Assembly (NCBI RefSeq): GCF_026930045.1
Contig: NC_072731.1
Span: 137,882,156-137,946,155, forward strand
DNA: 64,000 nucleotides
DNA from: Uloborus diversus
Lineage: Eukaryota
Reading direction: 5' to 3'
Positions within the stretch are counted from its first letter, which is position 1; each line of letters begins with the position of its first letter. A program made the position numbers and the translations under genes. Positions 1,464 to 46,538 of the stretch are shown here, one piece after another. The notes under the pieces were generated by a model. It made no database searches and was not told the origin of the DNA. It was given only the letters and a program-made list of their open reading frames with translations.

Positions 1464-1640
<177 letters not shown>

Positions 1641-3400: not shown

Positions 3401-5904
3401 TTTTTCTTTCGTGTGCTCTCGCTCTCGGGGGAGAGAGTCTTTGTGGTATTTGAAGGGGGCGCGCTATTCAGGGGTGGATACAGACTACCTTTTGTGAGGG
3501 AAGGGGGACATGCTCAGGAATAACTCCCTCCCCGACGAGCGAGCCTACGGTTTGGGGAGGGGGGAGCATTACTGTTGCTTAGGTGTCAGTAAAAAGCTCC
3601 GATTCGGCCAGGAGTGATGCACCCAATGGGGTAAAAACGTTACAAGTTAATTTAATAAGCAATAAAAAGAAATATATTTCAAATACTTACTTTACATTTT
3701 TTTTATAAATTAAAAATATTGCTGCGATCGTTTACATTTTTTTCATAAATTGTTTGAACATAACGTGAATGTACAAGGGTGTCGATGGTTTAGGGGATGA
3801 TGACCCCCATGACCCTCCCCCTGTATCTGCCACTAGCGCCATTGCTCTTGAGGTCATGGGAACTCCTCCATAATGTGTAGTAATACTAACCTTAAAGCGG
3901 GGGAAATTTAGATGCTAAAATCTGATGAAAATCGAATAAGCAGTTGAGAAAAAGGTTATATATTTATCACAGTGAAACATAAATTAAAAACTCTTTCTCT
4001 GTTTGCCTGCCAACATCGATAAACTCGAGTTGCATTTTGAGCGAATGTATTACTTAGAAACAGCTCTGCTTCATTGACGATAAATCTTATCAAAAAATTT
4101 CAATTATGGATGGCCAAAAATTAGCTTTATGTTTTTTAGGTATGAAGTAAGGTGCACAAACTAATTAATCAGGCGAATTTCTGAAAAGTAAAAAAAAAAC
4201 GGGGGGGGGGAGAAAAGACTGGTAGTGGTTAGATTTCTGAAAAGTCAAAATCGACGAAAATATGATCATTGATATTGGTTCACATTAATGTCTTTCAGCG
4301 GATGACAACAATTTAACGAATGCTGACATTCTAAGCATTGTATCAAAAAAAAAAAAAAGAAAAGAAAAAAAAGCCTAAACTACGAGACTAAATGATGTAA
4401 CTAATAAAAAGGCAAATAAAAAAAGTATGTATCGTAAAGACACGTGATTTTTCTCTTTTACTTTCTAAACTGGCACTACACCGGCACGTTTTCTCTCCCT
4501 ACACACTCTTGCTCTTCCTCCGCCTGACTCAGGCATATTCACAACAAAATTGAAAAAGAAAATAGATTATAAACAACGAGAAAATACTCGAAATCTGCTT
4601 TGTAGTTGTTCCCCAAAACAATTAAATATAACAGTAATAATAAATTTAATTTTGTTAATAAAGGTTAACAAACTTATTTCTTGTCTGAACATTAGATCAT
4701 GATTTTAAACTGATGACTTGACTTGAATGAAGGAAATCTTCACTAACCTACATTATTTAAAAAGTCTAAAATGCTCAAAATAAATAAATTATATGCTTGC
4801 GTGAGTTCAGACTTGAAATTAATTTGTTAAATTTAAGCAACAAAATTAACTTAATAATTACTATTATTTTTCATTGTTCTGTCAACAACTAAAACGCAGA
4901 AGTTTTTAATTTTAGTAATTACTACTGTTTTTCATTCTTTTTGGCAACAATTAAAACAGCAACTACGTCACTTCCGTCACACAAAAAGGTTGCGGATCAG
5001 AAGTTCAAAGCCCTTCGCCGAAAAAGTTTCACTTTAAAAATAAGATTATAATAAAAGACACTAAATTTGTAATAAAAACTACATTTTACGAACAATTATG
5101 CATGGTATAAATTTTAGTGAACCAGAGTTGCTTTAAAATCGTGCAATGTATAACATTTAAAAACCGAACCATAAAAACAATAAAACACGTGTTATAAATA
5201 TTTTCGAAGTGTGCTGTGGACAAACATTTGACAATTTAAATTAGTTGAGATCTATTTTTGGATTGATAGTGATCGTTAATTCGAGTATCAAATATAGTGC
5301 TATAAATGTAATGACACTTACTTCATATAAGCATGCTGTCTTGTAAAGGAACTTTACACGGTCGCTTAAAATCCAATAAAACGTTTTCAATCGTTATCCG
5401 TTACCTGCGAAACTTTTAGCGCAAGTAGCTATGTTTAAAACTTTTGGATCGTCTGCTCTTCGGGAGATAAAAGCAGCGCCATCTCGTTGACGTAAAACCG
5501 TAACATGCCACTTCTACGTTGCATTATGAACGAGTTATGTTCCATTTTTGTCTTCCTTGTGACAAAGGGCATATCAAATTGTATGACAGCTTGAGTTCTA
5601 AGAAAGCCAACGAGTAGAGAGAATGTCATTATTTCAAACAATGTTGATCGGTCGGCATTTGTCTTTTCATCGACTATGATTTTTTTTTTTTACATTGATT
5701 CAAATTTGTATCACTTCTGAGAAAATAAGAAAGAAAACTGGAAAAGTATTGCACATGCTACTATTATATTACTTCTTGAACACTAACGATGCCAGGGGAG
5801 CCAACGAGGGTTCTTGAAATTTAAAGGTTAAATTTAGAATATTTTTGATCTCATTTAAGGCTGCTCTCATTTTGTGGGATGCTATTCCGTAGTATTTGAG
5901 GGGG

Positions 5905-11965: not shown

Positions 11966-12215
11966 GTTATCTCTGATGATCAAACATCTAGAGATCTCTT
12001 AATTTAATTTTTGAATAGTGGTCAGTTTATTTCCAAGTATATTTACCCTTTATCAGTAAGATAAATAAATACCTTTGTGCTGAACAGTAAAGTAAGAAAA
12101 AACAACGTCAAAAAAGCACAAATTGCAAATTGCTGTAGGCACGTGGGCTTTTGCCGGATGTCTTTTCATCCATAAGCTCATTACTTTTTGCATTGAAAAA
12201 GGCGTTCCCAGAAAA
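11966..12215 (+). repeat. Direct repeat, 250 bp, copy 1 of 2; the partner is at 13371-13604
   Basis: 'atctagagatctcttaatttaatttttgaatagtg.tcagtttatttccaagtat.tttaccctttat.agtaagataaataaatacctttgtgctgaacagtaaagtaagaaaaaaca.cgtca.aaaagcacaaattgcaaatt.ctg.aggcacgtgg.cttttgccggat.tcttttcatccataagctcatta.tttttgcattgaaaaa.gcgttccc' is about 93% identical between the copies. The two flank 1155 bp. Confidence 0.85.
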
Positions 12216-13270: not shown

Positions 13271-13370
13271 CGCGTGCTATACCTTGAACCAGATTTGTAG
13301 CTTTTCTCATTCTTTTCTGAATAATTTTGGAACTACTCATGTTTCCAAGCTGTGGAAACTTGTTTTATAC

Positions 13371-13604
13371 ATCTAGAGATCTCTTAATTTAATTTTTGAA
13401 TAGTGATCAGTTTATTTCCAAGTATTTTTACCCTTTATTAGTAAGATAAATAAATACCTTTGTGCTGAACAGTAAAGTAAGAAAAAACACCGTCAGAAAA
13501 GCACAAATTGCAAATTACTGCAGGCACGTGGACTTTTGCCGGATATCTTTTCATCCATAAGCTCATTATTTTTTGCATTGAAAAAAGCGTTCCCTGTAAC
13601 GCCG
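13371..13604 (+). repeat. Direct repeat copy 2, followed by a partial inverted copy at 13606-13680
   Basis: This is the same 250-bp unit as 11966-12215. Immediately downstream, 'cgaaacacgtgtctgcagtaatctgcaatttgtgcttttttgacgttgttttttcttactttac' is the reverse complement of 13468-13530, forming a local palindrome. The artefact ORFs 12053-12328(-) and 13536-13757(+) share the 'ICNLCFFDVVFSYFT' stretch for this reason. Confidence 0.85.
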
Positions 13605-16460: not shown

Positions 16461-17252
16461 CCTAAAAATAAAAATTAACAATCACAGGTTAATTATGAGA
16501 GGAATTTCTTTTACTTGTTATGGGCAAAAGTTACCCCCCTCCCCCGCGTTGAAAAAATTACTCACTAAGACTTTGATAAAAGAAAACTGGTTTAAATACA
16601 TATGAATTAAGAAAATTTCAGTGTCAATATTGTGAAGACTGTGTTATCTCTAATTTTTAAAAATAAAAAATGAAGATAGCTTCACAGATTTAAAATCCGC
16701 ATTAAAAATAACGTTGTTTTAAAAAAGTGATAAATAAAATAAAAACGAGAAATAAAAAATTTTGCATTCAAACAAAAATAATTTCTCCCATCTCCGCTGA
16801 AGCTTTCGTTGAAGTAATGAGGCCATGCAAACAGAATAAAGTGATAGTAACAGTTCTCAAATGTTGCTAGGCAGACGATTTCGATTTATCGATTGCAGCT
16901 GCCACAGAAAGCTTTAGAAAAGAATAAGTGCCACTTCAATACTTACTCCAAACTACTAGCTGAAAAAAGATTTATTGATAATAACATTTTTTTTTTTTTT
17001 AATTCTTACTTCTGATCACAAAAGAAATTATGAATATGATTTATCAAATTAAAATATTAATGGGGAAAGAACCATTAATGATTCGTTTTAGATTAGAATT
17101 ATGCTACGTAGTTACACAAAGCTCAATCTCATAAAAGGTTTTTTTTCCTCCTTTGAAGTAAAACAATTTAGCAGTTAAATTGAGTTTTAAAATTGCTTTT
17201 GAGAAAGCACGGAAAGAATGGTGAAGGGCAATTCTACCGTCACGTGCGGCAC

Positions 17253-17595
17253 AATCCGATATAGTGATGGGCATAATCGAGTTCTCATAATCAAATCACT
17301 CGATTATTCATGATCACTCGAGAACTCGATTTTCACGAGTTCTTGATTATCACATCTCGAGTTCTCGATTATAGTCTTTCGAGTTCTCGATAATAGTCTT
17401 TCGAGTTCTCGATTATCACATCTTGAGTTCCCGATTACCACTTTCGGAGTACTCGAGCGATGGACTGCTCGAGTTCTCGATTATCACTTTCCGAGAACTA
17501 GAGCAATGAACTGTACGAGTTCTCGAGATGTTGGTTCCTCGATTTAAAGAGATTTGATTTCTCGAGTTCTCGAGATAACGGGACGCGCCCCGCCA
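17253..17595 (+). repeat. Satellite-like array of ~20-24-bp 'tcgagttctcgattatcac' units; left arm of a 15.9-kb-spaced inverted pair
   Basis: Tandem 'ctcgagttctcga' subrepeats. The terminus 'caatccgatatagtgatgggcataatcgag' is mirrored by the reverse complement of 33085-33118. The internal 'caatcgctcgagtactcg' is mirrored in 32920-32945. Confidence 0.8.
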
Positions 17596-18289
17596 AGGAA
17601 ACCAAACGTCAGCAGCCAACAGAAGCAAATCCACCGCCAAAGACGAAAGAAAATAAAAACGACCAAGAACAAGATTACACGACAGAACACATTGAGGTTT
17701 TTCGGGTTTTTTACCCCTCTGTATCTCAGCCCCATGAAAATCCCCGGAGTTGATTTTTGGTACACTTAATCTCTAGTGGCCCCTGACGCCGTAAACCAAA
17801 ATATAATCCCCTGGACCATCAGGGAGAGGAGGTATTAAAGATATAAAATTGCTGTTCAAAAAAGTTTTCGCTTTCTTTGACAGGGCTACAGCAAAGACGA
17901 AAAGAGGAATCAAGCAGAAATTTCGCACACACATTCCTTGTGCCTTACTGATGTGTCTTTTGTGCCATTTGACCCCCTCCCCTTCCCCCCTCGTTTTTAC
18001 CCCCCAAATTGTACCCTCCCGGGGTTCTATCACAGCCCCCGAGGGGCTACGGTAATGATTTTTTGTATACATATTCTTGAGAGGCCATTGAGTACGTATA
18101 CAAAAATTCAACCCCCAGGGACATCATGGGCAGGAGTAATTAAAGTTTGAAAATCACTAATTTTCCCTAAATACTTATCTCATCAAAAACAACCCTGTTG
18201 TAAAAATTTCCTCGCTGAGAAAACCTTTAACTTTTCCGCACAAAAACGAAAACCTGCATCCTAAACCCTCAGCCATAAAAAGTTATGAT

Positions 18290-18600
18290 ATCTAGTTTGC
18301 TAGTAAAAAGTTACACCGTTTTCAGCGTCGGGTTTTGGGAGGAGGGGGGAAAGAAGTTGGTAAATTAGTAGTTTTTATCAGTTTTTCGGAAATATTTAGA
18401 AAACTATGGCGTTTAGAGCAAAAAGTGCAATATACAAAATATTCTACACTAAATTACGAACAAAATGGTCCTAAGCATTATTTTGTTTAGTGAACGGTTC
18501 CAGAGTTACAGAGGGTGTAAAAATAGAATTTTTTCGGATTTTTTTAGAAAAAATATTCATTATGAGTAAAGAAACTATTTTTTTTTGTATGAATTGTGTT
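18290..18600 (-). repeat. Dispersed repeat R9, left copy of an inverted pair with 28950-29240
   Basis: The reverse complement of 18290-18540 aligns at roughly 90% with 29020-29240 ('ctgtaactctggaac.gttcac.taacaaaataatg.tta.gaccattttgtt.gtaatttagtgtaga.tattttgtatattgcactttttg.gctaaacgcc.tagttttc.aaatatttccgaaaaactgataaaaactactaattt.ccaacttctt.cccccc...cccaaaacccgacgctgaaaacggtgt.actttttac'). Confidence 0.85.
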
Positions 18601-20519
18601 TTGTAACAGCAAATTACGATTTTAGGGGCCGGTGTTATGTTTGTGATAAGCCCTTGAAGGAACGACAACCTCATTGCCTACTTAAGGGGCTCTACTTTTA
18701 AGGGAAAAGTGGCTTTCACGGGCCGTGGCTTTATAAATCTGCGGCACGGAGAATCTCAAATTTTCTCTAGACAATGCAGGAATAAGAATGAATATATTTT
18801 CAACATAGATAATTTTAAAAGGTAAAAATGCGTAACAATTATGATTTATAATTATATCATTTTTAATGATAGCATTTTTATAAGTGCAGCTTTTGAAGAT
18901 TTTTCTTTAGAAAATAGGCATATTTGCCTGTATATTGCAACCATATTTTATCAAACTTTTTGAAGTTCGTAAACTGTGTCAATACTAATATTTAATAAAA
19001 ATGTAGAACGTTACATGCGACATACTGATGAAAGATATTCACAGTATTCAGTCCTCTTCAAACAAAGCACCGTCCTCTTCTAGATCATCGTCTATGATAT
19101 TAGCGTCCCTGTTAATACATCCTGGAACTGAGCAATTACTGCACATGCTTGAGCAGTTTAGACCAGTATTTCTGCACTCGTTAGTTATGGACGCATTTGT
19201 CTTTGCAAATGTACACTATGTGGGAAAGTAATTCCTGGGGAGCCTGCAGAACACATTGTTGTAATTGATCTGAGGTGTTCACCAATCTTCTTCCACCCCC
19301 ACTGGAGCAGATTCTTTTTCTCATCCAGCCACTGTTGGATCTGTTGTAGGGTTTATATGAATGCTGCATGGAAGCTGCTGAAAAAGGGGGGGGGGGGGGT
19401 AGTGCGGCCAACTGGAACATTGAATATATGGACTGCTTTACAATAGCCTGCCAGTAACACTGGTAGCAAAAGCTATCTAGATCTTCAGTATTCTATTGGC
19501 TTCAAACATCGCAAGAAGGAAATGCTTTCCTCCGTCAGCCCTTAGAGCACGAATTCAAATGGAGGGAGCAAATCCAATCATTGGCTTAGCAAAAAGTGAC
19601 CCAAAGACCCCAAGTCACGTGAGGCAACAACGACGAATGGTTAGCACGTTTTGCGTGAAACAAGCGAAAGAAACCTGATTTCTTCCACTGCTTTGCGTTA
19701 AAATCTATCACGTGACTTGGAGGTCTTGGCTTCATGCATGAAAGTCTTCACGCCCTCCATTTTATCTCTTCTCAATCCGTCAGCCACTGAACTGGGGTCA
19801 GCTAGAAGCTTCGTACGAAGAGCGCTGTTGGCTTGTACTTTTCTATACGGTGAAATTTTCCCCTTCTTGTAGATAGATGATACAGTGTCAAATCCTGTGG
19901 AGGCGTATTTTGCTAAGAGTACACCTTTCATATATTCAATGCCTCACTGAATGTCCGAGATAGTGTACAACTTTTCCTGCTGATTGCCTTTCTTTGGTAC
20001 CACAATTTTCAATTTGTGTGTGAACAGTCAACAAGACTAGTAAGTCCGTATCATCACCAATCACACAAGCTTCAGCCCCATTTTTAGCTTTACCAATCGC
20101 TGGTAAAATTTTACTACTATTATATATGCGAAAGTTTGTCTGTATGGATGTATGCATGTATGGATGTTTGTTACTCTTTCACGCAAAAACTACTGAATGG
20201 ATTTTGATCAAACTTTACAATAATACAGCTTATGCATCAGAATAACACATAGGGTAGATTTCGTCCCGTTATGGGGGGCAAAACCCCCTTAGGAGGGCAA
20301 TAAAACACAATTTTTGTATAAATTCTCTAATATGGGTATGAAAAAATACTTGCACATATTAACATTATATGTCCATCGAAAGCTCTGATTTTTCTGCTGA
20401 AGATGGCACCTTTTCGAAAATTCTAAGTATAATGAAAAACGAGTTATGAGCATTTTAGTTCCATGTTCGAAGGCTTTCCTCAACTCAATACAATATTTAG
20501 TGTATCATCTCAACTCTCT

Positions 20520-20856
20520 GTCGAAAGCGACTATTGTTGTATTGTTGACTATCTTTGCTTTTCGTGATAGTTCAAGGCTTTTCTCAAGTCATATCTTGAA
20601 GTAAGATTTTTGCACAAGATTGGCAAATAATACATGGATTTGGTTGATTATTTTCCATTTTAATGCAACTTTGAGGCAATTAATGGGGTTTTTTTAAATT
20701 TATTTGTGTTAACTGGATATTTAATTGATCAGCAGAAATCTAGCCAAACTTTTTTTGTGGAATCATTTCAATAGCTAAGGCACTTGGCATTTTTTTCAAC
20801 TGTCGCTCTTTTTGAAGCTAAAGACTAGGCAATATTGTTTCTAGGTTATCACCATG
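20520..20856 (+). repeat. Repeat family R1, copy B (5' part), ending at the TSD of an inserted element
   Basis: Aligns with window positions 1-313 and ends in '...ctaggttatcaccatg'. Confidence 0.8.
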
Positions 20857-23800
20857 CATGGCCCCACTGAATACTTAACGGCCGTGGCAATCGCTGAAAC
20901 TCATGGCAACAAAGAGAGCGCCACTGGCTACCCCTGTTTTTGTTTCCACTTGGCGTGATTGTGAGCGTTGGCGCTTTGGCATCTGTGAATACGTGATTTC
21001 TCGACTTATTGTCGGGCGTACGTCATTTGACGAAAATTTCAATTTCAAAAAAAGGAATGAAGAGAAAACGTGCTGAATAAACATTGTATTACAAAGGTGA
21101 AGAGCATTTCTTGTCATTATTTTAATATTATATCAAAAATTACGCGTAATAAAAAATTTTAACTAAACACAGAAAACATATGATTTTTTTAAATATTAAT
21201 GCGTAATTCTTAATATATTTTTTCAAACTTTTTTTTTTTTTTTTTGAAAGCTTTGAATAATTTTCAAATTTTTTATTGAAAATCCCTTGGGGTTTCCTTT
21301 TTGGATACAACAGTTCTAAGATTGATGATATATGGCAGGCAGCCCTCATTTCTAATTTTACATGCTCATTTAGATGCGAATTTTTTTTCTGCTCAATAAA
21401 TTACATCGAAAAAAAAAAAAAAAAAAAACACGCTCCGCAATCTGTAAATACATTCATTTCGCAAAACTTGAGAGGGTCATTCATTGCCCCTTTTGACCCT
21501 GATGAGGGTTAGAGGGGGGGGTTATAGGAATTTACGTTAACAATTGCCATTCTTTTCGCTCGTAATGTAGTGTATATTTTACAACGAACAGAATTTAATT
21601 AAAAATGTACGCTTGGGAACAAACAGGTCCGACATTTAAAAATTCGCGGGGGGGGGGGGGGGGGCAAAGGTTTTGTGTTCGGGAAAAAACAAGCATAATG
21701 CCTAATTTTAGTATGTTTGTAAAATTTAGGGGTGTCATAATTGCCCCCTCCCCCGTGATATCCCCACTTGACAGGCCTGGTTAGGAATATTCTTTTTCAA
21801 ATGAAGAAGAACAATAGAAAAGTTGAAAATATGATGGCAATTTGAGAAAATGAACCATTCACATAATTTTAAAAACATTTAAAATCAGAGTGTGACTAAT
21901 ACATGGTTCTACGACGGGTCCGTGGTTCTCGCACCAATATTTTACCGACACCAAAATAATGTCATTTATCTTTTCCCCCTTCCATTTTTAGCACATCTCA
22001 TGTTATAATAACTTTAGTGTAGATTTTAGTAGTATATTAGTGCACAATACGCATAGAGATGCACAAACGTTTAGTGCACAAGAGCTATTTCGAAAAAGTA
22101 CAGATTTTTTTCCTTACAAAAGGAAATTCATAGCATAATCAAAAAATAAATAAAAATAACATGGAGCTAGAAAAAACTTTCATTTTTCCGAAGCTTAGTT
22201 TTTAATTTTTTAAATGTCTGATTTTGAAAATAAGGCGTGGTCTTTATGACGTCACAAATGATGTATTTTGGCGCATCTGTCAACCGCGTTTCTACGTTAT
22301 GATGATCAAGAAGCGAATTACATATTGCACTCTACGCTTACTATCAATCATATAATTGCCAACACTTTTGAGTAAAGAAACTAATTGAATATTGAGCTCT
22401 GTGAGTGACATCAGTGAATGGCATTTCATCATTTGTGATGTCATCTGCAGAAGCGTAAACAATGAAAGCGCACCGATTAATGCATTATTTTTTAAATATT
22501 AAACTTAGTCAAGTTATTTTAAAAAATGGTCAAATCCTATGATTTTAAAAATGTTCTTTCAAAAAAAAAAAAAAAAAACCCTTAAAAATTTTCGCTCGTT
22601 TTATAAATAATTTTTATAAACTACACAAAAAAAAGTCCGCACAAAAACAGGTTTGAGTGTACATACACACATCGGAAGGCGCACAGACCGGAGAGCGTTC
22701 ACTTTAGTTCAGATTCTATCCCCACCCCCAGGCTCCCACCTTACCGTTAGCATCCCAGGTGCTATTACTTCAATATATTTTTCAATTGTTATAAAGTGTT
22801 CACGCAAATAATAATTTTTATGATAAAGGTCAGATTCGGCCATAAAATATTTATATTATTTACAGACTCATATTACCTATTCTAGAAAATCAACAGTCAT
22901 ATTATGACGGGTGCAAATTTCTTGGTCATTTCCATTTCATTCCATTTGTAGAAACAAGAAACCCAACGAGTAGGATCCTATTGCAATTCATGATCGTGAA
23001 TAACTTTATTCGAACTCAAGCAGCCAAAATTCAAATTATTATTATTTTTTAAAATTTATTTTTAACATTTAACAAATACATGCAATAGGGAAAGAAACTC
23101 CTCAAATATCTACACATGAATTTGTGAAACTAATTTAAAAAAAAAAATGTGGAACAGATTATTTTACAAAATATCAACACTGTTGATATTTTGTAAAATC
23201 CTAGCAGGGGAGAGTTCCGTACAAAATTTATTTTGTCCTTGCAAAAGCAAAACAATGATATGATTTTTTTTATTTGCCATTTTAAAGATATTTTTAAACA
23301 TACATTCGATTTGCGATAGCTCGAATGTAAAAAAGAAAGATGGAAAACTTCGACTTATCGAAAGTTTGACTTAACGATAGTTTTGGTTTTTGATATTTTA
23401 ATACTAAAAACCATCGAATGCTTTAATCTGTACATATAACAGACAAAATTATAGAACTTAAGTTTTTTAGCACAATATGCACAGTTTAATCAAATGTATT
23501 GATAGAAAAAAATCAAAAGCATGCTGGAACCGCTTGAATAGAGCTGATTCTACTTCAGGAAATGTGCACATCTTCGTTCGTTTCAAATTCGGATTCGAAA
23601 TGAAGGTGAAATAATTATTCTCCCATAGTCACTTCTTTCTTTCTTTTTTTTTTTTTCGTTCTTTCGAAATAAATTTCGAGTAATCCTGGAAAAAACTTCG
23701 AGTTGAAAGAAGTTAACTTCGAGTTATTTATAATAATTAGACTGGAATTAAAGACAAAAAAGTAGAGACTTGATAAAAAATTCGAGTTATAGTAATGTTT

Positions 23801-24814
23801 CGGACTTCGATTTATCGCAAATCGACTTTTTTTTTTTAAAAATTAAAATATTTAGCGATATAAAATCCTGTAAACATTGAATTCTAGTCATAAAAAAACT
23901 ATTTTCTACACTTGAAAAATGAATGAGAAAGGAGCTTTGAACTAGAAACTTTGTAAGACATTTGATCGCCAAGTTTGGCGAAAATTTGGATATGAATTTT
24001 CTGTTGGAAAAATAAAATACACACACGCAGTAGATCGTCAAGAATCCGCAGGAGTCTAAGATCTGCTTACAAATTTTTGTCATCTTCTTCTAATTGTATA
24101 ACATTAGGAGCAGCTCTAAATATCTAGCATTTCTTAAAATAAAAAAAGGGTGGCGAGGGGGGTAATTTTCCGTTATAGGTACGTAGTGGTGCATTTTTTA
24201 AGCTGGCGATTAGTTTCAATTTTATTTATTGTCATGGACTATTTCAAGTTACATATAAAGTACTTATTTGGCGATACCATGAACTATTTTGTCTTTTTAA
24301 AGACTTATAAGCGAAGCAAGCCTAGAAACAAAATCAAAAAGTCCATTAAAATAAAAAATAGTCCTCTGAATAATTAAGTTTCTCCATTAAGCGTAAAATA
24401 ATCCAACAAATGAAGCACAAACTATAAATGAGCATGTAAAATTAAATTAAAAGAAATTGCCAAACCAACTTTAGATGCTCAATTTACGTATTAAATAATC
24501 AGCTGAATAACATTACTGATTCGATTCGAATTGGTTGATTCGGTATATTTCTGAGCATCTTGCGAAATATTAATGTTTGTTTTCTGTTTCATTTATTAAT
24601 TAAAATAAACAAGCTTTGAAACTTGTCGTTGATTGGTTGATGCAACCGTGGCTTGTGGCGCCTCCTTGCGGTCAGAATGGGCAAACATGAAGTTTTGAAG
24701 TTTTTCCATCTAGTGTGGCCATGTTCAAGTGCAGGAATAGTTGCCCCGGTTTAACACAGGAAAGTCAAAAATTGTCAAGGCCTGGTAAGCGCCAGCGCAT
24801 TCAGTGGGGCCATG
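20857..24814. mobile_element. Non-autonomous DNA transposon of 3958 bp with perfect 16-bp TIRs ('catggccccactgaat') and a 7-bp TSD ('caccatg'), inserted into an R1 copy
   Basis: The left junction reads 'tatcaccatg|catggccccactgaat' and the right junction reads 'attcagtggggccatg|caccatgtaacc'. The uninterrupted paralog at 301-320 reads 'cttacaccatgtaaac' with a single 'caccatg'. There is no ORF over 100 aa inside. The element contains a G18 run and a 19-bp inverted repeat ('atgacgtcacaaatgatg' at 22243 and 22427). Confidence 0.8.
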
Positions 24815-25340
24815 CACCATGTAACCAAATATCGCCATTTCTTTAATATTTCTTTCTTTAAATTTGTTAACACGTAAAGTAATTCGCCAACTAAATTAAG
24901 CGAATGCATAAAGAGCACAAAAACTTCCATTAATTTGTCTTTGCACACAATTTCAAACAATTGCTAAGTTTTTACTGTTTATTGGAAATATTTCGCGTAG
25001 CATCATTTTATAATCACCAGAAGTACCTCTGTATTTGGCGACTCTCTTTCTTCGATGAAAATTAGTAACACACAGTTTTAGGAGGGAGGAGGAGTCTCAT
25101 TTAAGGTATCCCAAAACGATTAACGCAAATTTAATAACATTTTAAATCGCAGTAAGGGATTACGGGCAGCTACACTTTTTAAAAGTTTGTACTTCAATAG
25201 CAATATAGAAAAGGTTTTAGACTATGTTAAAAAAGAAAGAAAAAAAGATAAATCTTTTTAAACAAGTGAAGTGTAATTTTTTATTTTGGAAATTCCTCAA
25301 ATTTGTATATGCTTAAATATCGTTTTTTCGTTTCTAAAAG
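24815..25340 (+). repeat. Repeat family R1, copy C (3' part), starting at the TSD
   Basis: Aligns with window positions 307-890. Confidence 0.8.
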
Positions 25341-28261
25341 AGTGCTATTTTTACTCTGGTAAAATAGTACTCTGGTGCAATGGTATTTTTACTCTGAACT
25401 TTTTCGTATTGTAATCAGGACCGTTTACGTTATTTAGAAACAGTTGATTTCCTTCTGGTGGAGATTTTAATGGTTTGATGTTCTGACTCTAAAGGGACAT
25501 TATTAGAATCAGGATTTATAGTGATTGTTGACCCTTTTACGGGACGATTTCTACGGTAAGAAAATATACATTATATAATAATTTAGATTTCCGGTGTAGC
25601 GCTGGATGTTATGTATTTGACGGAGATCGGGATTATAAGGGAACTGTTTTACTTTATTTAAGAATAGTTGACCTTACTCGAATTGGATTTTTTTAGAATT
25701 ACCCAAACTAACTTCTTTACAACTCCTGTACGTTTTCAAGATTTATTTTGTGTGATTTTTTGAGTGTCTTCCAAGTTTCGCCGACATTTCATTTATCTCC
25801 CTTCCCTCTGATTTTCAGTTTTAATCATACCTTTTGATACATTTAAGGGGGCAAGCAATTCGAAATGTCATCGAAACTAGAGACAAACAATTTTTCGGTA
25901 ACTATTTGATCTCTGCTTGTAATGACCATTAACTTGAATCAATTGAAAAAAAAAACTACATCAACGTGAGCGAAGCTGCGGGTAAAAGCTAGTTATTAAT
26001 AAGTTTGCGTCATCCGATGCTTGATGAACTGTGCAACCGCCTCTTTGCAAGTGTATTGTAAGGAGAGAAATAAGGCCAATTTTGTCCTTAGCGTTAGCTA
26101 GAAATTCCCTTTGGTTGATTGTTACATCGATTGAGTCGAATTGAGTCGAAATTTCAATATTGAAACTTTGAACAGCGGCAACCCTATGATTGGAGGACTT
26201 TTGCTTAAGCCAGGGGCGGCATTTCAGCATTTCATTTGGGGGGTCGAGTTTCTTTAATATGTATTACCACAGTGCGGTCCCAAACACACATTAGGTAACA
26301 GGAAGTAGTCAAAAAATTGGTTTAATACGAATAAAAATTAGTGTTTAGAAACAATTAAAATTTTGATTCACTTTCTAATAAGTTACCATACAAAACATCT
26401 CGATACTAAAGTTTTTATACCTTTTGGAAAAGTTTTAGTGCATGATTTTTGGAATTCGGGAGAGCAGGGAATCGTGTTACTAATTTATCAGTGCCCAGTG
26501 CCGTTGTGTTTTGCCAGTACAGCTAAATAGATTTTTTTTTTTTTTTTTTTTTGGCCCATTGTGCTTTGAAAATAAGTCTCTAATCTCCTGAGACAAAAAA
26601 AAAAATCTTTCTCTGCTAGTTGAGCTGATTGGAATAGTTAAAAACAATTAAAGCGAGTTATTATTAAGAGTTTTCATAAAACAAAGTTATGTATGAAAAC
26701 TCTTTTTATATCTTGCTCTTCAAAATCACTCAGGCAGCTTCAAAAATTGTTAGGGGCTTAATTTTTCATCATTGAATAATCTAGTCTCGTGGGCGCTCTC
26801 AGCTTCAATGAGACGTCATCTGCCTCCATCCCTGTTATTCACTATTTCAGACTGATGAGTCCATTACAAGGACAAACTGCAGTCTCTGGATGTGATAATC
26901 AGTTTTTAGGTACATTGCTTGTAATTATTCCTGCCTCATGCTAAAAATTTTACTCATAACTGAAACATTTTATTTTTCGTTTTCAAAATCCAATCCAGAT
27001 AATATAGAGCCAACCATACAGAAAAATAATTATCATCAAATCTTGTGTTAATTTCATTCAAAACTGAATCTATTACTTCATACAAAATATTGAAAAATCA
27101 ATGCTTGACTTCACATCATCATGTGGATTTTTGTCACTTTTTTTTTTTTTTTTTTTTGCGCCTTTTTAAAAGTGGCTAGGAGGTAGATTTTTTTTTTTTT
27201 TTTTTGAAAAGTTTCACGATGGATTGAAATATACATCTATGTAAAATCCATTTTCAGTTTCAATTATAGATTGAACTATAGTAGTATGGTGCACAGATCA
27301 ATGATAGATTGAACTGTGGTTTGAATAGTCCGAAAATTAAGCGTAGCGGATTGAAGATGTTTTGATAGAGTAAAGCATTTTTCAAAAACGTTCTTCAATA
27401 CAAACAAATTGAATAAAAATTCAAACGAAGTCCATACATGAAAAAGGGCATGAGCTTTTTCACCATTGAAAGAATCCTTTTGCAATAATTCTTCCAGTCG
27501 TCAAATCACTGCTTTGAAGTTATAAAGAAATCTTTTTATGGTTTTAACTCTTGAAGACCATCTTGTGTCACTCCGAGATTGCATAATTATAGAGCCTCAT
27601 AAAAGGTATTTGTTGATATGTTTTTTTATTCAATAATCACACGCATTTTTAAGAAGTTTCTATGAAAGCATATAATGCATTGAGCAGCTGAAACGTGTTT
27701 CTAGCAGAAGAAAGCGATGAACACTCAATAAACCATACACTTAAAAAATGAGCTTATACACTTAAAAAATGAGCGTAAATGTGAATGTAAAATATCAAGG
27801 AATTTTCTTACGAAAACCTTGCAGCCACACCACTTTGCACGAGTCTCTTATATTGGACACACCATACTGGGCACAGAAGTATGAAATATTTAGCCTATAT
27901 GAGGAAATGTCTTCTTTAGTTAAAATTAACCATGGTTCTTTATCAATTTTCTCTGTTTTGAAAGGGCCGGAAAATACTTCATGAATTTCTAAGTCATCAT
28001 ACAAATAACGAAAAACCCTTTTTCCAGTCTGAAAATGTGTTGAGAGTTTCATCAAATAGTTACTAAGAACCAGCGAGATTTTTTTTTTAATGAACATTGA
28101 TTTCCGACTCACATAAAATGAATTCACCCATTTTCTCTCATTCTGCTCAAAAAATTTGGGGGTGCGACCGCCCCCTCTTGACCCCCCTATTTGCCGCCCC
28201 TGGCTTAAGCAACCCTATACCATCGGTTTTTGTAATATTTTTATTTTCCTTTTTTTTACAT

Positions 28262-28860
28262 AACTTATATGGAAACTCGAGGAGGGTAAATTACCCATTT
28301 TTGGGCACTTTTTAGCCATTGGCAAGCTTGATTAGTACACACGCAACAGATAGGCAACCTTACTTTAACGTTTTCTTGACAAATTTTACTCTTCATTAAT
28401 GACAACAATTTTTGGAAACTCGATGAGGGTAAATTACTCATTTTTGGCCACTTTGTAACCTCTGGCAACCATTCTTAGGGACCGGAAAAGTAGGCAACCT
28501 TTCTTTACTGTTTTATTTACAGCTTTTACTTTTCATTTATGACAACGTTTTCCGGAAACTTGATGAAGGGTGAATTATCTCCCTTATTGAAAACCTTTTA
28601 CCTCCTGACAAGCTTGATTAGGGAGCCAAAAAAGGTTGGCAACCTTAGTTTAGCGTTTTATTTCCATCTTTTGCTCTTCCTTTATGGTAACGATTTTCGG
28701 AAACAACTCGATGAGGGTAAATTACTCATTTTTAGGCACCTATTAACCCCTGGCAACTCTGATTAGTTCACGTGAAAGAGGTAGAAATTCTTACTTTCAT
28801 ATTTTACAACTTTTACTCTTCATCTATGGTAACAATTTTAGGAAACTCGATGAGGTAGGT
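28262..28860. repeat. Satellite of ~140-bp units, about 4.3 units
   Basis: The repeated unit is 'ggaaactcgatgagggtaaattactcatttttgg.cac.tt...aacc.ctggcaa.c..ttgattag......aggcaacctt.ctttaacgtttt.tt...cttttactcttcat.tatg..aacaattttt'. Confidence 0.85.
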
Positions 28861-28949
28861 CAAGCCTAGTGGGATCCCATGTGGTACCTCTTAGCTTCTT
28901 TTAGACAACAATACGACTGTACAATTAACTTTTTAACAAAATTGTTTAG

Positions 28950-29240
28950 TTATTTATGTTTACGTAGTAGTTAAAATTTCATTTTTCCAAAAAATCTTAA
29001 AAATGCGAAAATTTTCTACTTTTACACCTGCTGTAACTCTGGAACGGTTCACGTAACAAAATAATGTTTAAGACCATTTTGTTGGTAATTTAGTGTAGAT
29101 TATTTTGTATATTGCACTTTTTGTGCTAAACGCCGTAGTTTTCAAAATATTTCCGAAAAACTGATAAAAACTACTAATTTTCCAACTTCTTCCCCCCCCC
29201 CTTCCCCCCAAAACCCGACGCTGAAAACGGTGTTACTTTT
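28950..29240 (+). repeat. Dispersed repeat R9, right copy of an inverted pair with 18290-18600
   Basis: See the evidence for 18290-18600. Confidence 0.85.
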
Positions 29241-30339
29241 TACCAAACAATGTGTGGACAGTATACAACAATTTAAAATTGACAGGAAACTTTTACTTTG
29301 GATGTTGAGGTTTATGTCTAATTGCACTGTACTACAACCACGGTGTTTGAAAATTCGGCGATGGTAAATTTTTTAGTTTTGAGGGTCAATTAACAATATC
29401 CAATAGCCAAAATATGAAAATTTAATAGGTTGCAACTTCCCTATTACTATTGGTTCGCGAATCCTCTCGAAAATAAGTGCTTTGGCAGTCATATGAGATG
29501 TTGTTAAGCGAGAGGTGTCAATAAATGAATACATCACCGGGTTTATGGGAGACGTAGTTTGGTGTGTACCGGTGATGGAAATATAGGTTCTAGAACTCTA
29601 ATAGGTTTTTCTGGAAAGCCGTTAAAATAAAAAAATATATATTTTGGGCAAAAAGAGGAAATGCTAGTTAATTACCAGAGGGGACATGGACGCTCCCCCT
29701 TACGTCCATATTCGGCTACATCTTTGGGTAACTAAATAAACCTCTCGAGTAGTTTACTTCTCGAATAATTCATTCGCAGGGGTACCACCGGGTGGGAGGG
29801 GAGGAAGAATCATAACGCAAACTTCAGTATTGTAATTTTTCGGGGATGTTTGAGATTTTCGTGGAGGGCCCTTTCGCGATATCCTTGTGTGTGGAGGGAG
29901 GGAGTTCGGATGGTTTTATCATTAAATGATTGTTTCTTGCGTGTTTCATTCATCATTCGATTATGGTTATAACGGAATGTTCGGTGTCGAATTTTCGATA
30001 TCTTGACTGTAATTTCTTCGTGAGGGTAGCCACGAGAGGATAGGCGTGATGCCGCAAAAAGCTGATTAAAATATTCATGGATTTCAGTCCATATCGTGGG
30101 ATTTTCGCTCTTGTGGGAGAGTTTGGAAGGAGGTGCGCCATCGCTCTCAGGAAGGGATGGGCGCAGCTGTCACCCAAATTATTCAAAAATGAATTAAGTT
30201 CTTCTCCAGTGTTTTATTCGTATGAGGTTTTAACGGAATGTTTATTGCCAATGTTTGGTAACCTGTTAATCGAATGATTTTTTTAGGACGAAATTGTTAA
30301 TAAAGCAGATTAAGGGGTTGGTGGGGAGAGGCATAGTCT

Positions 30340-30375
30340 AAAACAGAGTTTCTCAACCTTTTTTGACCCGCGGTC
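30340..30375 (+). repeat. hAT-like terminus fragment ('cagagtttctcaaccttttttgacccgcggtc'); a similar fragment sits at the window end, 63966-64000
   Basis: The 'g.gtttctcaacct.tt.ttttgac' motif occurs at both sites. It belongs to the same general terminus class as 12655. Confidence 0.3.
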
Positions 30376-31899
30376 AGAAAAACGCTTTATAAAAAAAATT
30401 CGCGGATCGGTGAGTTTTTTCCAAGGGAAGAAACTTTTACGCGCAGACAGTTGGACCATTGCGGTGGCTTCGCCTCCCCCCCCCCCCCTTGTTCTGCTTT
30501 TAAAGGGGGGGGGACGATTCCGGGGACCGTTAGAAAATTGAAAAAAGAGTTTTCGATCGATAGGGATTATTTTCTGAAGTTCTTACGATAATAAATGAAT
30601 AAATAAATCCATAAAACTTTATTTTGTATTAAAGAACTGTCCCAAAAAATATTAAAATGATTAGATAAGCAATATTCTAATACTTCTACACAAGTCAATT
30701 CATTGTAAAAGAATTATAAAAATTACAAAAAATAATCACAAACTGATGTAAGAAATGTCGTATAATAATTTTTTCAAAAATATACGTTTTTTCGTGTGTG
30801 TGTGTGTGTACGTGGATTTTTTTCTTTTAACGTGAACGAGCTAAAATGTCTGAAGACCGGTCGAATTTTGAGAATCGCTGGTCTAGATGATTAAAAAAAA
30901 AAAAAAAAAATCGTCCTCCAGTTTGCCTAATTCCTCTTTTTAAGCTCGTCATTTCGAACTTTTCCAAAGGGAGGGGCAATAGGTTTATACTCAATGTAAA
31001 TTATGCTGAAAAACACGCCCACACTCATGTAAAAACATTAATTTCTCTAAAACAGGAAGAACATTGGCGCCAAATGACTACCTAAATTACGTGCCTGTCG
31101 CCCATCTAGCAATCTTCTTTAGCAGCGTAAAGAACTTAAAAAGCTGAAGTGTGAAAAATATATTACTAACAGGGCCCAGCTCTAGTCAGGCGCGTGCACG
31201 GGGGGGGGGGGGGGAGATAGTACACCTGTTTGCCCGGGGCCGAGCCTGAAGGGGGCGCGAGATTTTTTAAATGAGGGGTGAAATATATGTAGGGACGTAA
31301 GGGGAAAACAATATGGAGGGGGACCCGCAAAAGTAACTTGTGACGGCCTCAAAATTTCTGTGCACTGTTCTACTTTCTGTTCCCCTGGCTCTAGTAGTTT
31401 TGCCGCCCCAGACGATATTGACATGTTCCACCCCCTCGTCTGTATAGATTTTTTTTTTTTTTTTGAATCATCAAGCATACTCACACTTGTTGCTGCAATT
31501 TGAGCTACAAAAAAAAAAAAAAAAAAAATTGAATTGTTTTTCTTTTCTTTTTTTGCTTCCTTGCATTTTGCTATCATGAAATTTGCTGCCCCTAAAATCT
31601 GGCACCCTAGGCGGTAGTACAGGTTACCTACCCCAGGAGCCGGACCTGATTGCTAATTCAAAAACCAATATGAATAGAAAACATGGTTGAAAATAAAATT
31701 TGCTTACCAAATTAAATTTTCATCATAAACATGTTCTAGAAAAGTTAAAATTTTGCAGGATAATATCCGAAACTCTAGATCAGGGACAATCAAGCTATGG
31801 GTCGTGGCAGTAAATGAATAACGAAATATTTCCTTGGGGTAGCTCAAAGACGAATGCAAAGGAGGGGTGATGGGACCTCCCTTGAGGGACCCTGCCCCG

Positions 31900-32300
31900 G
31901 TTCTTTTTTCCGAATTGAGGACCTGAAACGAAAGTGTAACCAGTTTTTGATTTGATGTTAAAGAAAGGAGTTGAGTTCGAATCTCCCTCACTGAAACGTT
32001 TTCGAATTAAAGTTTCAAAAAGGCAATTTTAGACGATCTTTGGTGATGTTAAGAGAAGGAGTTTGGAGGCTTTCCCTCTACATTTTTTCAAATTTGAGTT
32101 TAAAAATGCGATTGTAGACATCTCAGGTAGTGTTTGGGAGAGGGGGGACATTCCTCTAGTAATTTTTGGAAACTGAAGTTTCAGAAAGCAATTTTAGAAG
32201 ACTTTGGATGTTGCTAGGGTGAAGAGAGTTTCCAAACATTTCCCGAAAATATTACGAAATTAAGTTTCTAAAACTCCGTTTTAGAATACCTCTATCAACG
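31900..32300 (+). repeat. Satellite family of ~115-bp units, locus 1 with about 3.5 units; the same family as 60280-61110
   Basis: Units such as '..ttttcgaattaaagtttcaaaaaggcaattttagacgatctttggtgatgttaagagaaggagtttggaggctttccctctac' are shared with units at 60280-61110 ('gaaatttttcgaaattgatacttcaaaaacgcaattctaagactgtctttgattttgttaaggagatgggg'). Confidence 0.8.
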
Positions 32301-32654
32301 GAAAAGAAAAGAAATAGGCTCGGAGACCTCCTTCACTAAATCTTTTTATTCTAGTTGTTTTAAATAAAAATGCTTTGAACCCCACCTTCCGCCTCCATCC
32401 CCAGCAGGTGTGAATCAGATTTCCCCGTCATTGAAAAATTTCTGGATCCACCTTTGGAGTAGCTAGGTGAAAGAAATGACTGTTGTAAATGAAGTTTTAC
32501 GTAATTTAGCCTGTTAAGAACTTCTCCTCTAAATTATATTTAAAAAAAATCGTGATTAGTTTAAATAAAGATTTTGCTTGGGTTTCTTTTTTTTTTTTTT
32601 TTTTTTTTCAGTTCATGCGAAAGAAAGCAGAATCGTTTGTAAAAAAAACCCAAT

Positions 32655-32740
32655 GAGATTTAAAAGACGCTCTAACCCCCCTCACCCCTCAAAATTTTAC
32701 TGGCGTAGTCTGCGCCATGGACACCCGTAGCGGGCACCCC
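32655..32740 (-). repeat. R8 family copy (reverse orientation)
   Basis: The reverse complement is 'caggggtgcccgctacgggtgtccatggcgcagactacgccagtaaaattttgaggggtgagggggg'. It resembles 41420-41500. Confidence 0.55.
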
Positions 32741-32764
32741 TGTAAAAGTAAACTGGATTCCGAA

Positions 32765-33118
32765 AAACTCAGGAAGCCTATAAACTGATCGAGAACTCGA
32801 TTCAAACATCTCGAGATCTCGAATTGAAACATCTCGAGATCTCGATTTAAAACATCTTGAGATCTCGATTCAAAAGATCTCGAGAAGTCAATTGCTCGAG
32901 TACTCGATTCAAATTCGGAAGATCTCGAGAAGTCAATCGCTCGAGTACTCGATTCGGAAGATCTAGGGAATTCAACCGCTCGAGTTCTCGATTTCAAAAA
33001 TCTCGATTATCGATCACTCGAGTTCTCGCTTTCAAAAGATCTCGATAATCAATCACTCGATTATCAGAAGTACTCGATTATCAAAAGATATCTATTATGC
33101 CCATCACTACAATCCGAC
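32765..33118 (-). repeat. Satellite-like array of 'tcgag.tctcga' units; right arm, inverted relative to 17253-17595
   Basis: Tandem 'ctcgagatctcgatt' subunits. The terminus 'gatatctattatgcccatcactacaatccgac' is the reverse complement of the 17253 terminus. Confidence 0.8.
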
Positions 33119-34702
33119 TCGATAATTGCAACAACATTTTGTTATCTTCATATTTTAAATTAAACAAGAGAAAGCACATTTTTCAATCTTTACATTTAAT
33201 ACAGAAACACTCTTGACACTCTGATTTTTTAAATAACTTTGTGACTCAAAATTTAATTTATTTGCATGCGTCACGTGCGGAACATCTAAAGTCTTCCTCT
33301 TGCAGTTTGCTTTATGCATTACGTAATATTTTTGCTCTATTAAATTTACAATTACAAAACAATTTGTAGGTTTTGAAGGCTAAGGTACCAACATAAAGGG
33401 GAAAAAAACAAAAAAAAAACAATGTGCTTGGCCATTCCTGAAAACGATCGTTTTATCTCGCACGTGATGGTTTCTTATAATACTTCATAAAAAAGAAATA
33501 AATTTAACAGGATATGACGAAATTTTTTGCTTAAGAAGTCACATACACGTTTGTGATTTCTTAATCCGCAATTCAAATAAACTATAGGAAGCGCTGCAGT
33601 CTCTAGCCAATACCAATTGAAAGAGGTGAAGCCAAAACTAAACCACTACATCCGTCCAACAGGGTTGTTTGCTTTTATCCACGTTGGTTTAAACCATGGT
33701 TTAAACTGTGGTTTAAACCAAGTGATTAAAAAAAATGTGGTTTTTTTCTTTTTTTTTTTTGAAAAATTTTCATTGTTTTCCTCCTAATGTTTTCATAAGT
33801 TTTACATTTCATCGCAAAGAGTAAAAACTAATTAATGCAAAGTAACTGCCAAAGCTTTATAGATAAATTAGAGATTTAATAAACTTAGAAACTTATATTT
33901 TTTAAGGTAATGCAAGTTTACTATATAATTTTTATTTTATTATTATTATTTTTTTTAAATCTTTGCAGCTTTTCTACTAGGTACATAAATATAGAAGGCA
34001 ACTAAGTTTTTCTAAAATTACATGAGAAACAAATCCAAGTAGCTCTTCTTTAATTTTTCAATTATCATTATTTTTCAGTCTTTCAAGCATATTTCAACCA
34101 AAGCTACATTAACTACCTAATTTGCTTGGTTATTTAAGATTTGTTGAGATAGATTATGTACCTTTGATATTGAAGCGATTCACAGTGTACATAAACCTAA
34201 ACACTTGAATCTTTAATGACAAGAGAAAAAAATAACTAAAGAAGTCCAAGAACACTTAGAGTAGGCAAAAAATTGGGCTTATAACTGCACTTTTTGCATC
34301 CCCAATAGACAATGCAGTCAGAGCAAGAAAAGAAAATACATAAAATTATGAAAACAGAAAAAAATCATGTAACTCTATGCTCTTATTTAAAAAAAAAAAG
34401 CCAAATTTTTACCTTTCAAAAAACCTTTTTGATCCCAATAAAATAAAAGTCTCGTGTATGAATGGTGGAAGAATCAATAACCATTAATTTTTATGATAAT
34501 CTTCATTATATGTGTTAAAAAAGAGTAGTTTCATTTAAGTTTGCACTGAAGTTTTTAATTAAAATGATTTTTTTTCTTTGATAAAAAAAATTGCGTTCCT
34601 AAATGCATTGAACCAATAGAAATAATATCTACAATGGAAAATATGATGTTTTTCTTCAAACCTACTTGTCCTGCTTCTATAACTGTTGGCACTAATTCAA
34701 GG

Positions 34703-44990: not shown

Positions 44991-46089
44991 AGAAAATACA
45001 TTGAAAACTTGATCTGGTCTATTGTTGTCTGAGTCTACACGTTGTCCTCTGCTTGAAACTGTTAAAAGAGTTTTTTTAGTCCATCATTTACCTTTTTTTT
45101 TTTCAATTTTTTAAAACTTAATCATCACTTGTCGTCTCGAATGATTAATAAAGTTCAACATGGTAAACGTAGGTAACGTTCTTTATTATTTGCCTAGGTT
45201 TTGATATAGGAACATTTGAAAACTAGAAAAATCTCACCAACTAAAGGCTTGGTACCTATACTTAGGTCTCAGAAAATACGTAGGTCTGACAAATTTTAAG
45301 CGAAATAAAAAAATAATAAAAACGAAAACTAAAATGCGAAATCTCACATTTCTTTTATTCCAAATCTCATTAAAAAAAAATATTTTTTTAAAAATTATCT
45401 CAGTTTGTATTTGGTCCGGATTTCAGTCAGCACCTTCTTCAAAAACTCCTATGAGTACAGGCGATAGGGCGACCCCCAAATTTTCTTCTATCTTTTCTTG
45501 CCATTATTTACAATAAATAACACAAAATATCGCGAAAGCATTCCTACAGAGAATAAAATAAAGCCCCAAGCCACTAAAAACCGTGAAAAATAGGTGGACT
45601 ATTGTTGTACCCCAACGTTCCCATTTTCGATAAATGTTGAGAGCTTGTGAAAACTAGGAAGCATTTTAAGTCAACAAGCGGCTTAATTCATAACTGACAA
45701 ATTAGTAAAGCACATCCGAACTTACCAGACCTTGGAAAACAGTATAAGTGGTCTGCTCAAAAGGAGACTTATGTCTCTTCCACGAATGAGTCGAATCACG
45801 CACTAAGAACGACTAAGTTATCTAAGGTTACAAAAACAATGGCAATCTCTGATAAAGCGTCTTTAACTACCTAAATTGTTACACTACCTGGTGTGTTTTT
45901 TTTTTTTTTTTGAACACGTAAGTTCGAAAATGATGCCACTAGAGAGCAAAATTATCGGGATAGTAACAGTGGCCCATTGTTGCCCCCTTGGCGCAAAGTT
46001 GTACCGTTTTACGGTAATGAATGATGATGGTTAAAACTTGCTGCAGTTGGTTGTTTCAACAAGCTGAAAAACTAAGTATATTAGGAATG

Positions 46090-46538
46090 CTTGAAATACA
46101 CCGCCAGCTCAGTCATTTCCAGCCGAGGACTGCAGTTTCGTGCTTATTAGCACTCATCAGCCCGACATAGGAAAGTGACTGAGCTGGAGATGGAAAACCT
46201 CTTAAGGAAGCCAAGAGTGCCAAACAAACTGGTAGCTGAACTAGATAGAATTAGCACGGACCCAGACGAGTGACCGAAACAATGGTTCGGTTCAACTCGA
46301 AGATTGATGGCAAGGTATGGTATATTTAATAAATTACCGCCCATTAGCATTGTTTCGGTCACTCGTCTGGGTCTGTGCTAATTCTAGTTCAGCTACCAGT
46401 TTGTTTGGCACTCTTGGCTTCCTTAAGAAGTTTTCCATCTCCAGCTCAGTCACTTTCCTATGCCGGGCTGATGAGTGCTAATAAGCACGAAATTGCAGTC
46501 CTCGGCTGGAAATGACTGAGCTGGCGGTGTATTTCAAG
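46090..46538. repeat. Near-perfect long inverted repeat (hairpin): arms 46090-46284 and 46348-46538 (~195 bp, ~97% identical), loop 63 bp; flanked by a 13-bp direct repeat 'tatattaggaatg' (46077-46089 and 46583-46595)
   Basis: The reverse complement of the right arm differs from the left arm only by a 4-bp indel ('atag') and about 5 substitutions. The loop end 'aataaattaccgcccattagc' is repeated in reverse as 'gctaatgggcggtaatttatt' at 46558-46578. Confidence 0.9.

Follow-up and report, generated by a model that had tools for sequence, protein, structure and literature searches.

Rehavkus elements have long inverted termini in which tandem repeats lie subterminally, and they make a 9-bp target-site duplication (TSD) (PMC6446971, Table 1); foldback elements of the Rehavkus, FB and Tetris type are reported from arthropod and annelid hosts (PMC6446971; bioRxiv 10.1101/2024.12.02.626372). 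AcademH-type elements make TSDs of 9–10 bp (PMC7165386). AcademX elements combine a transposase with both an XPG nuclease and a Cys8 finger in one large protein, with a D-D spacing of 138–192 residues followed by a G/A/E/QxxH motif; their TSDs are 3 bp long, their termini have a 5′ pyrimidine and a 3′ purine, and the terminal inverted repeats (TIRs) of some families exceed 100 bp (PMC7165386). Here we analyse a 64,000-nucleotide window of Uloborus diversus DNA (NC_072731.1, 137,882,156–137,946,155; positions below count from the first base of the window), in which a first-pass annotation had drawn attention to inverted repeat pairs nested one inside another. With a probability of roughly 75%, the outermost pair marks the ends of one old cut-and-paste DNA transposon, O (17262–33109, 15,848 bp), that was later invaded by other elements, each with its own inverted ends.

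O is bounded at both ends by the outward-facing 16-mer TAGTGATGGGCATAAT, identical at 16 of 16 positions when the left end is aligned with the right (coordinates of all features are given in table 1). With up to three mismatches allowed, these two copies are the only matches in 64 kb. Inward of each lie about 330 bp of degenerate arrays (block size about 335 bp) built on the palindromic 12-mer TCGAGWWCTCGA, whose core, TCGAG-WW-CTCGA, is common to both sides. All 18 matches to TCGAGTTCTCGA (one mismatch at most) fall within 17318–17573 and 32789–33029, with 0.11 expected by chance in the 64-kb window. The inner half of the TIR, ATAATCGAGTTCTC, is repeated through the arms, a pattern that commonly marks repeated binding sites of a transposase; the arms have diverged beyond the first 16 bp. 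The first-pass annotation had described the two outer blocks as oppositely oriented. The blocks are real and the opposition is confirmed for the terminal 16-mer, but it does not extend to the arrays, which are equally alike both ways (local alignment scores of 49 inverted and 52 direct, shuffles about 10). Because the 12-mer core is a palindrome, the orientation of the blocks is set by the terminal 16-mer alone.

The 10 bases abutting O, CAATCCGATA on the left and CAATCCGACT on the right, match in register at eight positions, the first eight being identical. Among 2 million random site pairs drawn from the 64-kb window, an in-register match of at least 8/10 arose at a frequency of 0.00135, and an 8-mer shared exactly and lying no more than 2 bp from either junction at 0.00055, a chance of about 0.0005–0.0014. 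The flank match is a TSD, whose length is 10 bp if two bases were substituted later, or 8 bp if slippage of TA turned TAGTG into TATAGTG at the left tip: CAATCCGA stands on both sides of O, its left copy 2 bp (TA) off the TIR. Comparison of the flanks gave no further duplication outside O beyond these 8–10 bp. The outer limits proposed initially, 17253 and 33118, include duplicated target bases, and the TSD that the first-pass annotation had suggested looking for outside them was found. A TA duplication of the Tc1/mariner type was considered and rejected, as it needs a pre-existing CAATCCGA-TA-CAATCCGA tandem at the target.

In the search that allowed three mismatches, the 16-mer was found solely on the outer side of each block. 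The blocks are therefore half-elements, the two ends of the single insertion O, and not two miniature inverted-repeat transposable elements (MITEs) whose pairing is coincidental, as the first-pass annotation had allowed. It is improbable that they are unconnected pieces or solo ends of some dispersed repeat, brought by chance into opposite orientation at a distance of 15.5 kb. Such a coincidence would be eased by the transposon density of the region, by the fact that a single locus is at hand and by the imperfect TSD, but the in-register 8/10 flank match (p about 0.001) speaks against it, as does the confinement of the 16-mer and the array motif to these two blocks within 64 kb. The proposal that TIRs bound a single element, with tandem repeats in subterminal position and nested insertions inside, is supported by the perfect 16-bp TIR, the motif arrays and the TSD.

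Further mirrored segments had been suspected between the left and right interiors of O. Aligned as mirror images, 17596–18302 and 29335–32764 score 14, against 14.1 ± 1.4 for shuffled sequence, and no similarity above shuffled controls was detected between these intervals beyond the pairs already identified. As the interiors align no better than shuffles, O lacks long colinear TIRs past its tip and arrays. The same comparison makes it very improbable that the mirrored pairs arose by inverted segmental duplication, an origin the first-pass annotation had offered and three concentric inverted pairs would seem to suggest. The pairs also lie at asymmetric distances from the ends (1.0 kb and 3.9 kb), what looks like an innermost pair has no inversion in it and is one copy of a repeat (R1) split by an insertion, and every pair is accounted for by the ends of its own element.

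The 15.8-kb size and inverted ends of O recall the Maverick/Polinton elements, self-synthesising elements of 15–20 kb with long TIRs, which had also been named as candidates. We scanned six-frame stop-free stretches of at least 45 aa over 17200–33150, together with a complete six-frame translation of 29335–32764, and found no Pfam domain; there was no signal of a protein-primed polymerase, integrase, ATPase, protease or capsid. With no hallmark genes, a TSD of 8–10 bp in place of 6 bp, arms that share only a 16-bp tip and a motif, and an interior accounted for by other identified elements, we give a Maverick origin next to no credence.

Within O lies a second inverted pair, R9, which the first-pass annotation had recognized correctly (18303–18543 against 29243–28999, 89.8% identity over 245 bp); a related contig, taken as a guide, extends its limits to about 18303–18570 and 28975–29334. 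The simplest reading of the sequence is that the pair represents the terminal regions of one internally deleted AcademX-like transposon, G (18303–29334). Read outward from the G gene, R9-left and R9-right are the same sequence, which is the geometry of terminal inverted regions. On this reading G is missing the greater part of its transposase-coding sequence, together with some 92 bp at the extreme left end, and no second G terminus was found in the 64-kb window. That both R9 copies belonged to one copy of G is likewise the simplest reading, and R9-right may be a separate fragment of the same family.

The G gene itself was recovered from minus-strand frames at 26200–25994 and 20109–19051, which resemble one broken gene. 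Stitched together, they match a conserved protein family over 100% of the query length (P0009, E = 9e-63). With tblastn, residues 5–52 of P0009 fall at 26137–25994 and residues 53–87 at 20109–20005, while residues 173–240 of a second member, P0013, fall at 26200–25994; because the two halves of P0009 lie on either side of it, the gene has been cut cleanly by a 5.9-kb insertion. Two contigs from ENA assemblies that encode these proteins, L128 and L130, share 75–90% DNA identity with the window and run unbroken over the 25993/20116 junction, their homology continuing through the 3′ non-coding region of G to 18614. An exhaustive HMMER search returned 5,689 cluster representatives of the family (E ≤ 0.001). 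Full-length members have about 1,440–1,520 aa, and the remnant in the window corresponds to roughly residues 940–1,440; only the last ~330 codons persist in the window copy, in decayed form.

An alignment of 20 full-length members with P0009 and P0013 revealed near-invariant residues at D422/D425 and D589 (spacing 164–167 residues), at G617-x-x-H620 and at E756, a domain marked by the motifs DADxLIV and GxDTDLLVLL, and a C-terminal cluster of eight or nine Cys. The D residues are putatively catalytic. A family profile compared with the PDB matched only human Exonuclease 1, an XPG/Rad2-family nuclease, in the DAD/DTD domain (profile positions 1083–1279, E = 0.018), and Pfam held no model for the family except a weak match to DUF6589. 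These features agree with the published description of AcademX, against which, rather than against any sequence named Academ, the family was compared. The single-protein architecture is shared (the N-terminal part is transposase-like and is followed by an XPG-like nuclease and then a Cys cluster; the window keeps the XPG-distal and Cys part), the D-D spacing lies within the published range and is followed by GxxH after the second D, and the G terminus, TAGTAC…GTACTA, starts with a pyrimidine (T) and ends with a purine (A).

The terminus of G was located with the help of L127 (ENA ERZ26696514), which contains at 2964–5898 a palindrome of 2.9 kb, in which two 3′ parts of a G-type element stand head to head at 98% identity. 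Both arms stop at one base, and differing flanks begin there with TTA on each side; because both arms stop where different flanks begin, the arm end is the terminus of the element. The TTA/TTA flanks, a single case in another species, may represent a 3-bp TSD of the AcademX kind. We conclude that an AcademX-like transposon gave rise to this palindrome as a foldback derivative. R9 directly follows the 3′ non-coding region of the gene both in the window and in L127, which comes from a more distant relative. R9-right (28975–29243) runs 91 bp further, as it does in L127, and ends ...GTCTAATTGCACTGTACTA at 29334. The TIRs of O were considered as the true ends of G and rejected, given that the L127 arms and the homology in the window stop at ...GTACTA. 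L129, a full-length relative, has no TIRs within its 5.3-kb contig. Two further observations concern these contigs: an open reading frame (ORF), P0012, reads over the centre of the L127 palindrome, and L128 carries at 836–3561, upstream of its AcademX-like ORF, a GC-rich insertion. It encodes a C-terminus of tyrosine-recombinase type and, at the N-terminal side, a Cys-rich motif, and both look DIRS-like by eye.

The insertion that cuts G is R1, which splits the ORF between residues 52 and 53 of P0009 and, judged by its 3′ end, resembles a Helitron. Its ends (…TTGTTACTCTTTCACGCAAAAACTACTGAATGGATTTTGATCAAACTT… at 20117–20330 and …GCGAAGCTGCGGGTAAAAGCTAG|T at 25940–25992) may resemble a Helitron-derived repeat common in Lepidoptera, a similarity that, if correct, would hint at the host lineage. 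A second copy of R1, at 22–894, matches 20575–20856 and 24876–25351 and provides the empty site for the 3958-bp element that interrupts R1 here; the split R1 and the exact length of its insertion are as the first-pass annotation had given them. A hAT of 1,992 bp has broken into G close to where the XPG-like remnant begins. By eye it holds a decayed, hAT-transposase-like minus-strand frame (SDTRWSSR…, with a hATC-like end), which Pfam did not confirm. This frame, at 26.5–27.6 kb, was also considered as a remnant of O's own transposase and rejected, lying as it does within a nested hAT that has its own TIR and a perfect 8-bp TSD. About 3.6 kb of the interior and a 143-bp tandem array have no assigned element.

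Table 1. Features of the nested locus, in window coordinates. Repeat periods were obtained with Tandem Repeats Finder (TRF).
Feature	Position	Strand	Basis
O, left TSD copy CAATCCGATA	17252–17261	+	directly abuts left TIR; 8/10 with 33110–33119
O, left TIR TAGTGATGGGCATAAT	17262–17277	+	exact 16-mer, one of two window copies
O, left subterminal array of TCGAGWWCTCGA motifs, 22- and 66-bp periods	17278–17595	+	TRF, motif scan
O, left interior with two diverged ~180-bp units; may be original O or other decayed repeats	17596–18302	none	no mirror partner at right
G, left terminal region (R9-left), tip of ~92 bp missing	18303–18570	−	contiguous with G coding remnant in window and in L127
G, 3′ non-coding region	18571–19050	−	nucleotide-level homology, downstream of the ORF, to L128, L130 and L127
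G, coding remnant: distal XPG-like part and Cys8-type C-terminus, with frameshifts and stops	19051–20116	−	tblastn P0009–P0013; L128 82–88% DNA identity
R1 insertion, Helitron-like 3′ end ...AAAGCTAG then T	20117–25992	+	L128/L130 uninterrupted; limits good to ~3 bp
3958-bp TIR element in R1, TIR CATGGCCCCACTGAAT	20857–24814	none	7-bp TSD CACCATG at 20850–20856 / 24815–24821
G, coding remnant: proximal XPG-like domain (…LISLLTIHLQRGGCTVHQASDDANLLI…)	25993–26202	−	tblastn P0013; L128 89.7%
Nested hAT, 1,992 bp, TIR CAGGGGCGGCA	26211–28202	none	perfect palindromic 8-bp TSD GCTTAAGC at 26203–26210 / 28203–28210
143-bp tandem array, 4.1 copies	28271–28855	+	TRF; no homology to L127 or L128
G, right terminal region (R9-right and distal tip), ends ...GTCTAATTGCACTGTACTA	28975–29334	+	L127 comparison
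Nested hAT-type MITE, 479 bp, TIRs CAGGGCCCAGCTC and CAGGTCCGGCTCC	31170–31648	none	8-bp TSD ATTACTAA / ATTGCTAA
O, right subterminal array of TCGAGWWCTCGA motifs, 23- and 39-bp periods	32765–33093	−	TRF, motif scan
O, right TIR	33094–33109	−	exact 16-mer, aligned with left end
O, right TSD copy CAATCCGACT	33110–33119	+	flank match, chance test

A plausible history can be proposed from these features. O would have inserted once, as a non-autonomous or fully decayed cut-and-paste element, at a site predicted to read ...GGCACAATCCGA(NN)CGATAATTGC..., with the 8–10-mer present once. A transposase supplied in trans, presumably recognizing the 12-mer arrays as reiterated binding sites by analogy with other TIR elements, would have cut the target with an 8–10-bp stagger and left the flanking repeat CAATCCGA(TA/CT). 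G, with terminal inverted regions of ~350 bp, would then have entered O and lost most of its transposase gene; R1 would have entered the coding region of G, and the 3958-bp element R1 in turn. The 2-kb hAT may have entered G elsewhere, and the 0.5-kb hAT MITE probably landed in O itself. The stack amounts to at least five insertion events and is ordinary in a repeat-rich animal genome. Its concentric look, which the first-pass annotation had called unusual, is a consequence of nesting, because each TIR element that lands inside another brings paired inverted ends and so adds an inverted pair. Each inner pair here represents the ends of a separate nested transposon, and a second such set lies at 47.7–52.7 kb.

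It is also conceivable, but unlikely, that O moved as a large composite, its arms already enclosing the interior, in part or in full (the AcademX-like remnant, for instance), at its last move. The TSD demonstrates only that the two ends integrated jointly, and the inner insertions are not dated relative to the arrival of O, G having no readable TSD. Against such a composite, two of the inner layers look younger than O, namely the hAT, whose TIR and TSD are both perfect, and the 3958-bp element, whose TSD is. This contrasts with O, whose arms have diverged past the first 16 bp and whose TSD has two mismatches. Moreover, a search with the translated arms of O as protein query, aimed at spurious ORFs in other copies, found no match and hence no other copy with the same cargo.

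Several points weigh against our preferred history, in which O is a single old transposon invaded later by others. Its TSD is imperfect, and no transposase remnant assignable to O was found in the Pfam scans of O-specific sequence. The missing left tip of G leaves no TSD that would demonstrate a simple insertion into O or a single-copy R9 pair, and the E-value behind the XPG assignment of G is marginal. Finally, no second copy of O was found in scans of viral and metagenome collections with the 16-mer. Of the 126 loci fetched from these scans, none had 12-mer arrays; by rough estimate, several hundred chance matches are expected for any 16-mer in a collection so large. A literature string search for the termini of O returned unrelated primers only.

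One group of matches from the scans had a structure of its own. In JGI Ga0056126 and Ga0209458 contigs (L016, L020, L023, L029, L038, L039 and others), TAGTGATGAGCAAAAT and TAGTGATGGGCATAAT form a direct doublet with a spacing of 28 bp, and short repeats of the CCGTAACG type come after it. The doublet sits in a larger unit and is without an inverted partner in the contigs, and the 16-mer that this repeat shares with O is likely to be a coincidence or unrelated.

Some smaller features adjoin or lie within O. Its left interior contains a C-/G-run-rich unit of ~180 bp in two diverged copies (17690–17880 and 17975–18175, ~285 bp apart), and C/G-run motifs resembling these units recur across the region. 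Stop-free stretches of at least 45 aa in 17596–18302 gave no Pfam match, this interval not having been separately scanned in full. The 12-mer CGTCACGTGCGG occurs three times, always on the + strand (17238–17249, 33269–33280 and 47002–47013; 0.01 expected). The first copy stops 2 bp before the left TSD of O, and those at 33269 and 47002 have some further context in common. This 12-mer is possibly the end or binding site of another repeat family.

The window as a whole is AT-rich (GC about 0.30–0.39), its longest ORF does not exceed 222 aa, and Rfam and tRNA scans of it gave no match; it reads as intergenic, transposon-dense animal DNA full of dispersed repeats. The second concentric set (47724–52720) pairs 48080–48394 with 52720–52400 (76–90%), 47782–47817 with 52309–52274 and, inside these, 49888–49946 with 51660–51602 (95%), around a tandem array at 50931–51451, and is probably another stack of nested transposons. 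At 55389–55790(+) an intact 133-aa ORF has a hAT C-terminal dimerization domain (PF05699 in all matches; the best match, at 45% identity, is an Ixodes hexagonus protein) and is a remnant of another hAT transposase gene. A 199-bp inverted repeat (46086–46284 / 46348–46542, 95.5% identity, ~60 bp apart) is foldback- or MITE-like, and 226-bp direct repeats (11984–12209 / 13369–13594, 95% identity, 1.4 kb apart) are possibly a small long terminal repeat (LTR) or terminal-repeat retrotransposon in miniature (TRIM)-like element, or a local duplication.

Beyond annotation this locus matters little; it illustrates cleanly how concentric inverted repeats come about when TIR transposons nest. Such a pattern could be taken wrongly for one giant element, for a palindromic duplication or for a Maverick. 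The exact termini and TSDs of several families (O, the AcademX-like element, two hATs and the 3958-bp element) could serve as first entries of a repeat library for this genome. Should the family of O prove to have a 10-bp TSD, it would be a useful non-autonomous marker for a transposase lineage of this organism that is yet to be identified.

O behaves as a DDE-type cut-and-paste element that is non-autonomous or has decayed completely, and the candidates for its superfamily are a hAT-like origin (8-bp TSD) and one close to the foldback, Rehavkus or AcademH-like elements (9–10 bp). The TAGTG tip, which fits the YARNG-type terminus of hAT, and the exact 8-mer together favour hAT. Transposons of this superfamily are plainly active in this genome: besides the hATC-domain ORF, at least two hAT insertions are clear in the window, each with an 8-bp TSD. 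Non-autonomous hAT elements of the Ac/Ds kind likewise combine a short perfect TIR with 8-bp direct repeats at the flanks and reiterated subterminal motifs. However, the left 8-mer of O sits TA away from the TIR, so that the fit needs a 2-bp indel, no hAT transposase is assignable to O, and the two clear hAT elements of the window begin with CAGGG whereas O begins with TAGTG.

The 10-bp in-register reading and the tandem-repeat arms, on the other hand, favour foldback-like relatives, either Rehavkus or the AcademH type. No remnant of a MULE-like or PHD-finger transposase was found in the Pfam scans of the O region, nor is one expected of a non-autonomous copy. A 9-bp register of the flanks (AATCCGATA against CAATCCGAC) does not fit, and only 10 bp (8/10) or 8 bp plus two fit. 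It is doubtful that O is the first copy to be recognized of an arthropod TIR family missing from the catalogues, with foldback-like palindromic-12-mer arms and a 10-bp TSD, a length seen otherwise as typical for AcademH or MULE-like elements; on that doubtful reading O may also have moved as a 15.8-kb cargo-carrying unit. O may belong to an uncatalogued family, yet of a known kind. In comparison with Rehavkus, FB and Tetris, the arms of O have nothing in common but their 16-bp tip and the core of the 12-mer and are not colinear long TIRs, but its inverted termini, too, consist mostly of short tandem repeats, and its TSD, which reads best as 10 bp, is close to the 9 bp of Rehavkus.

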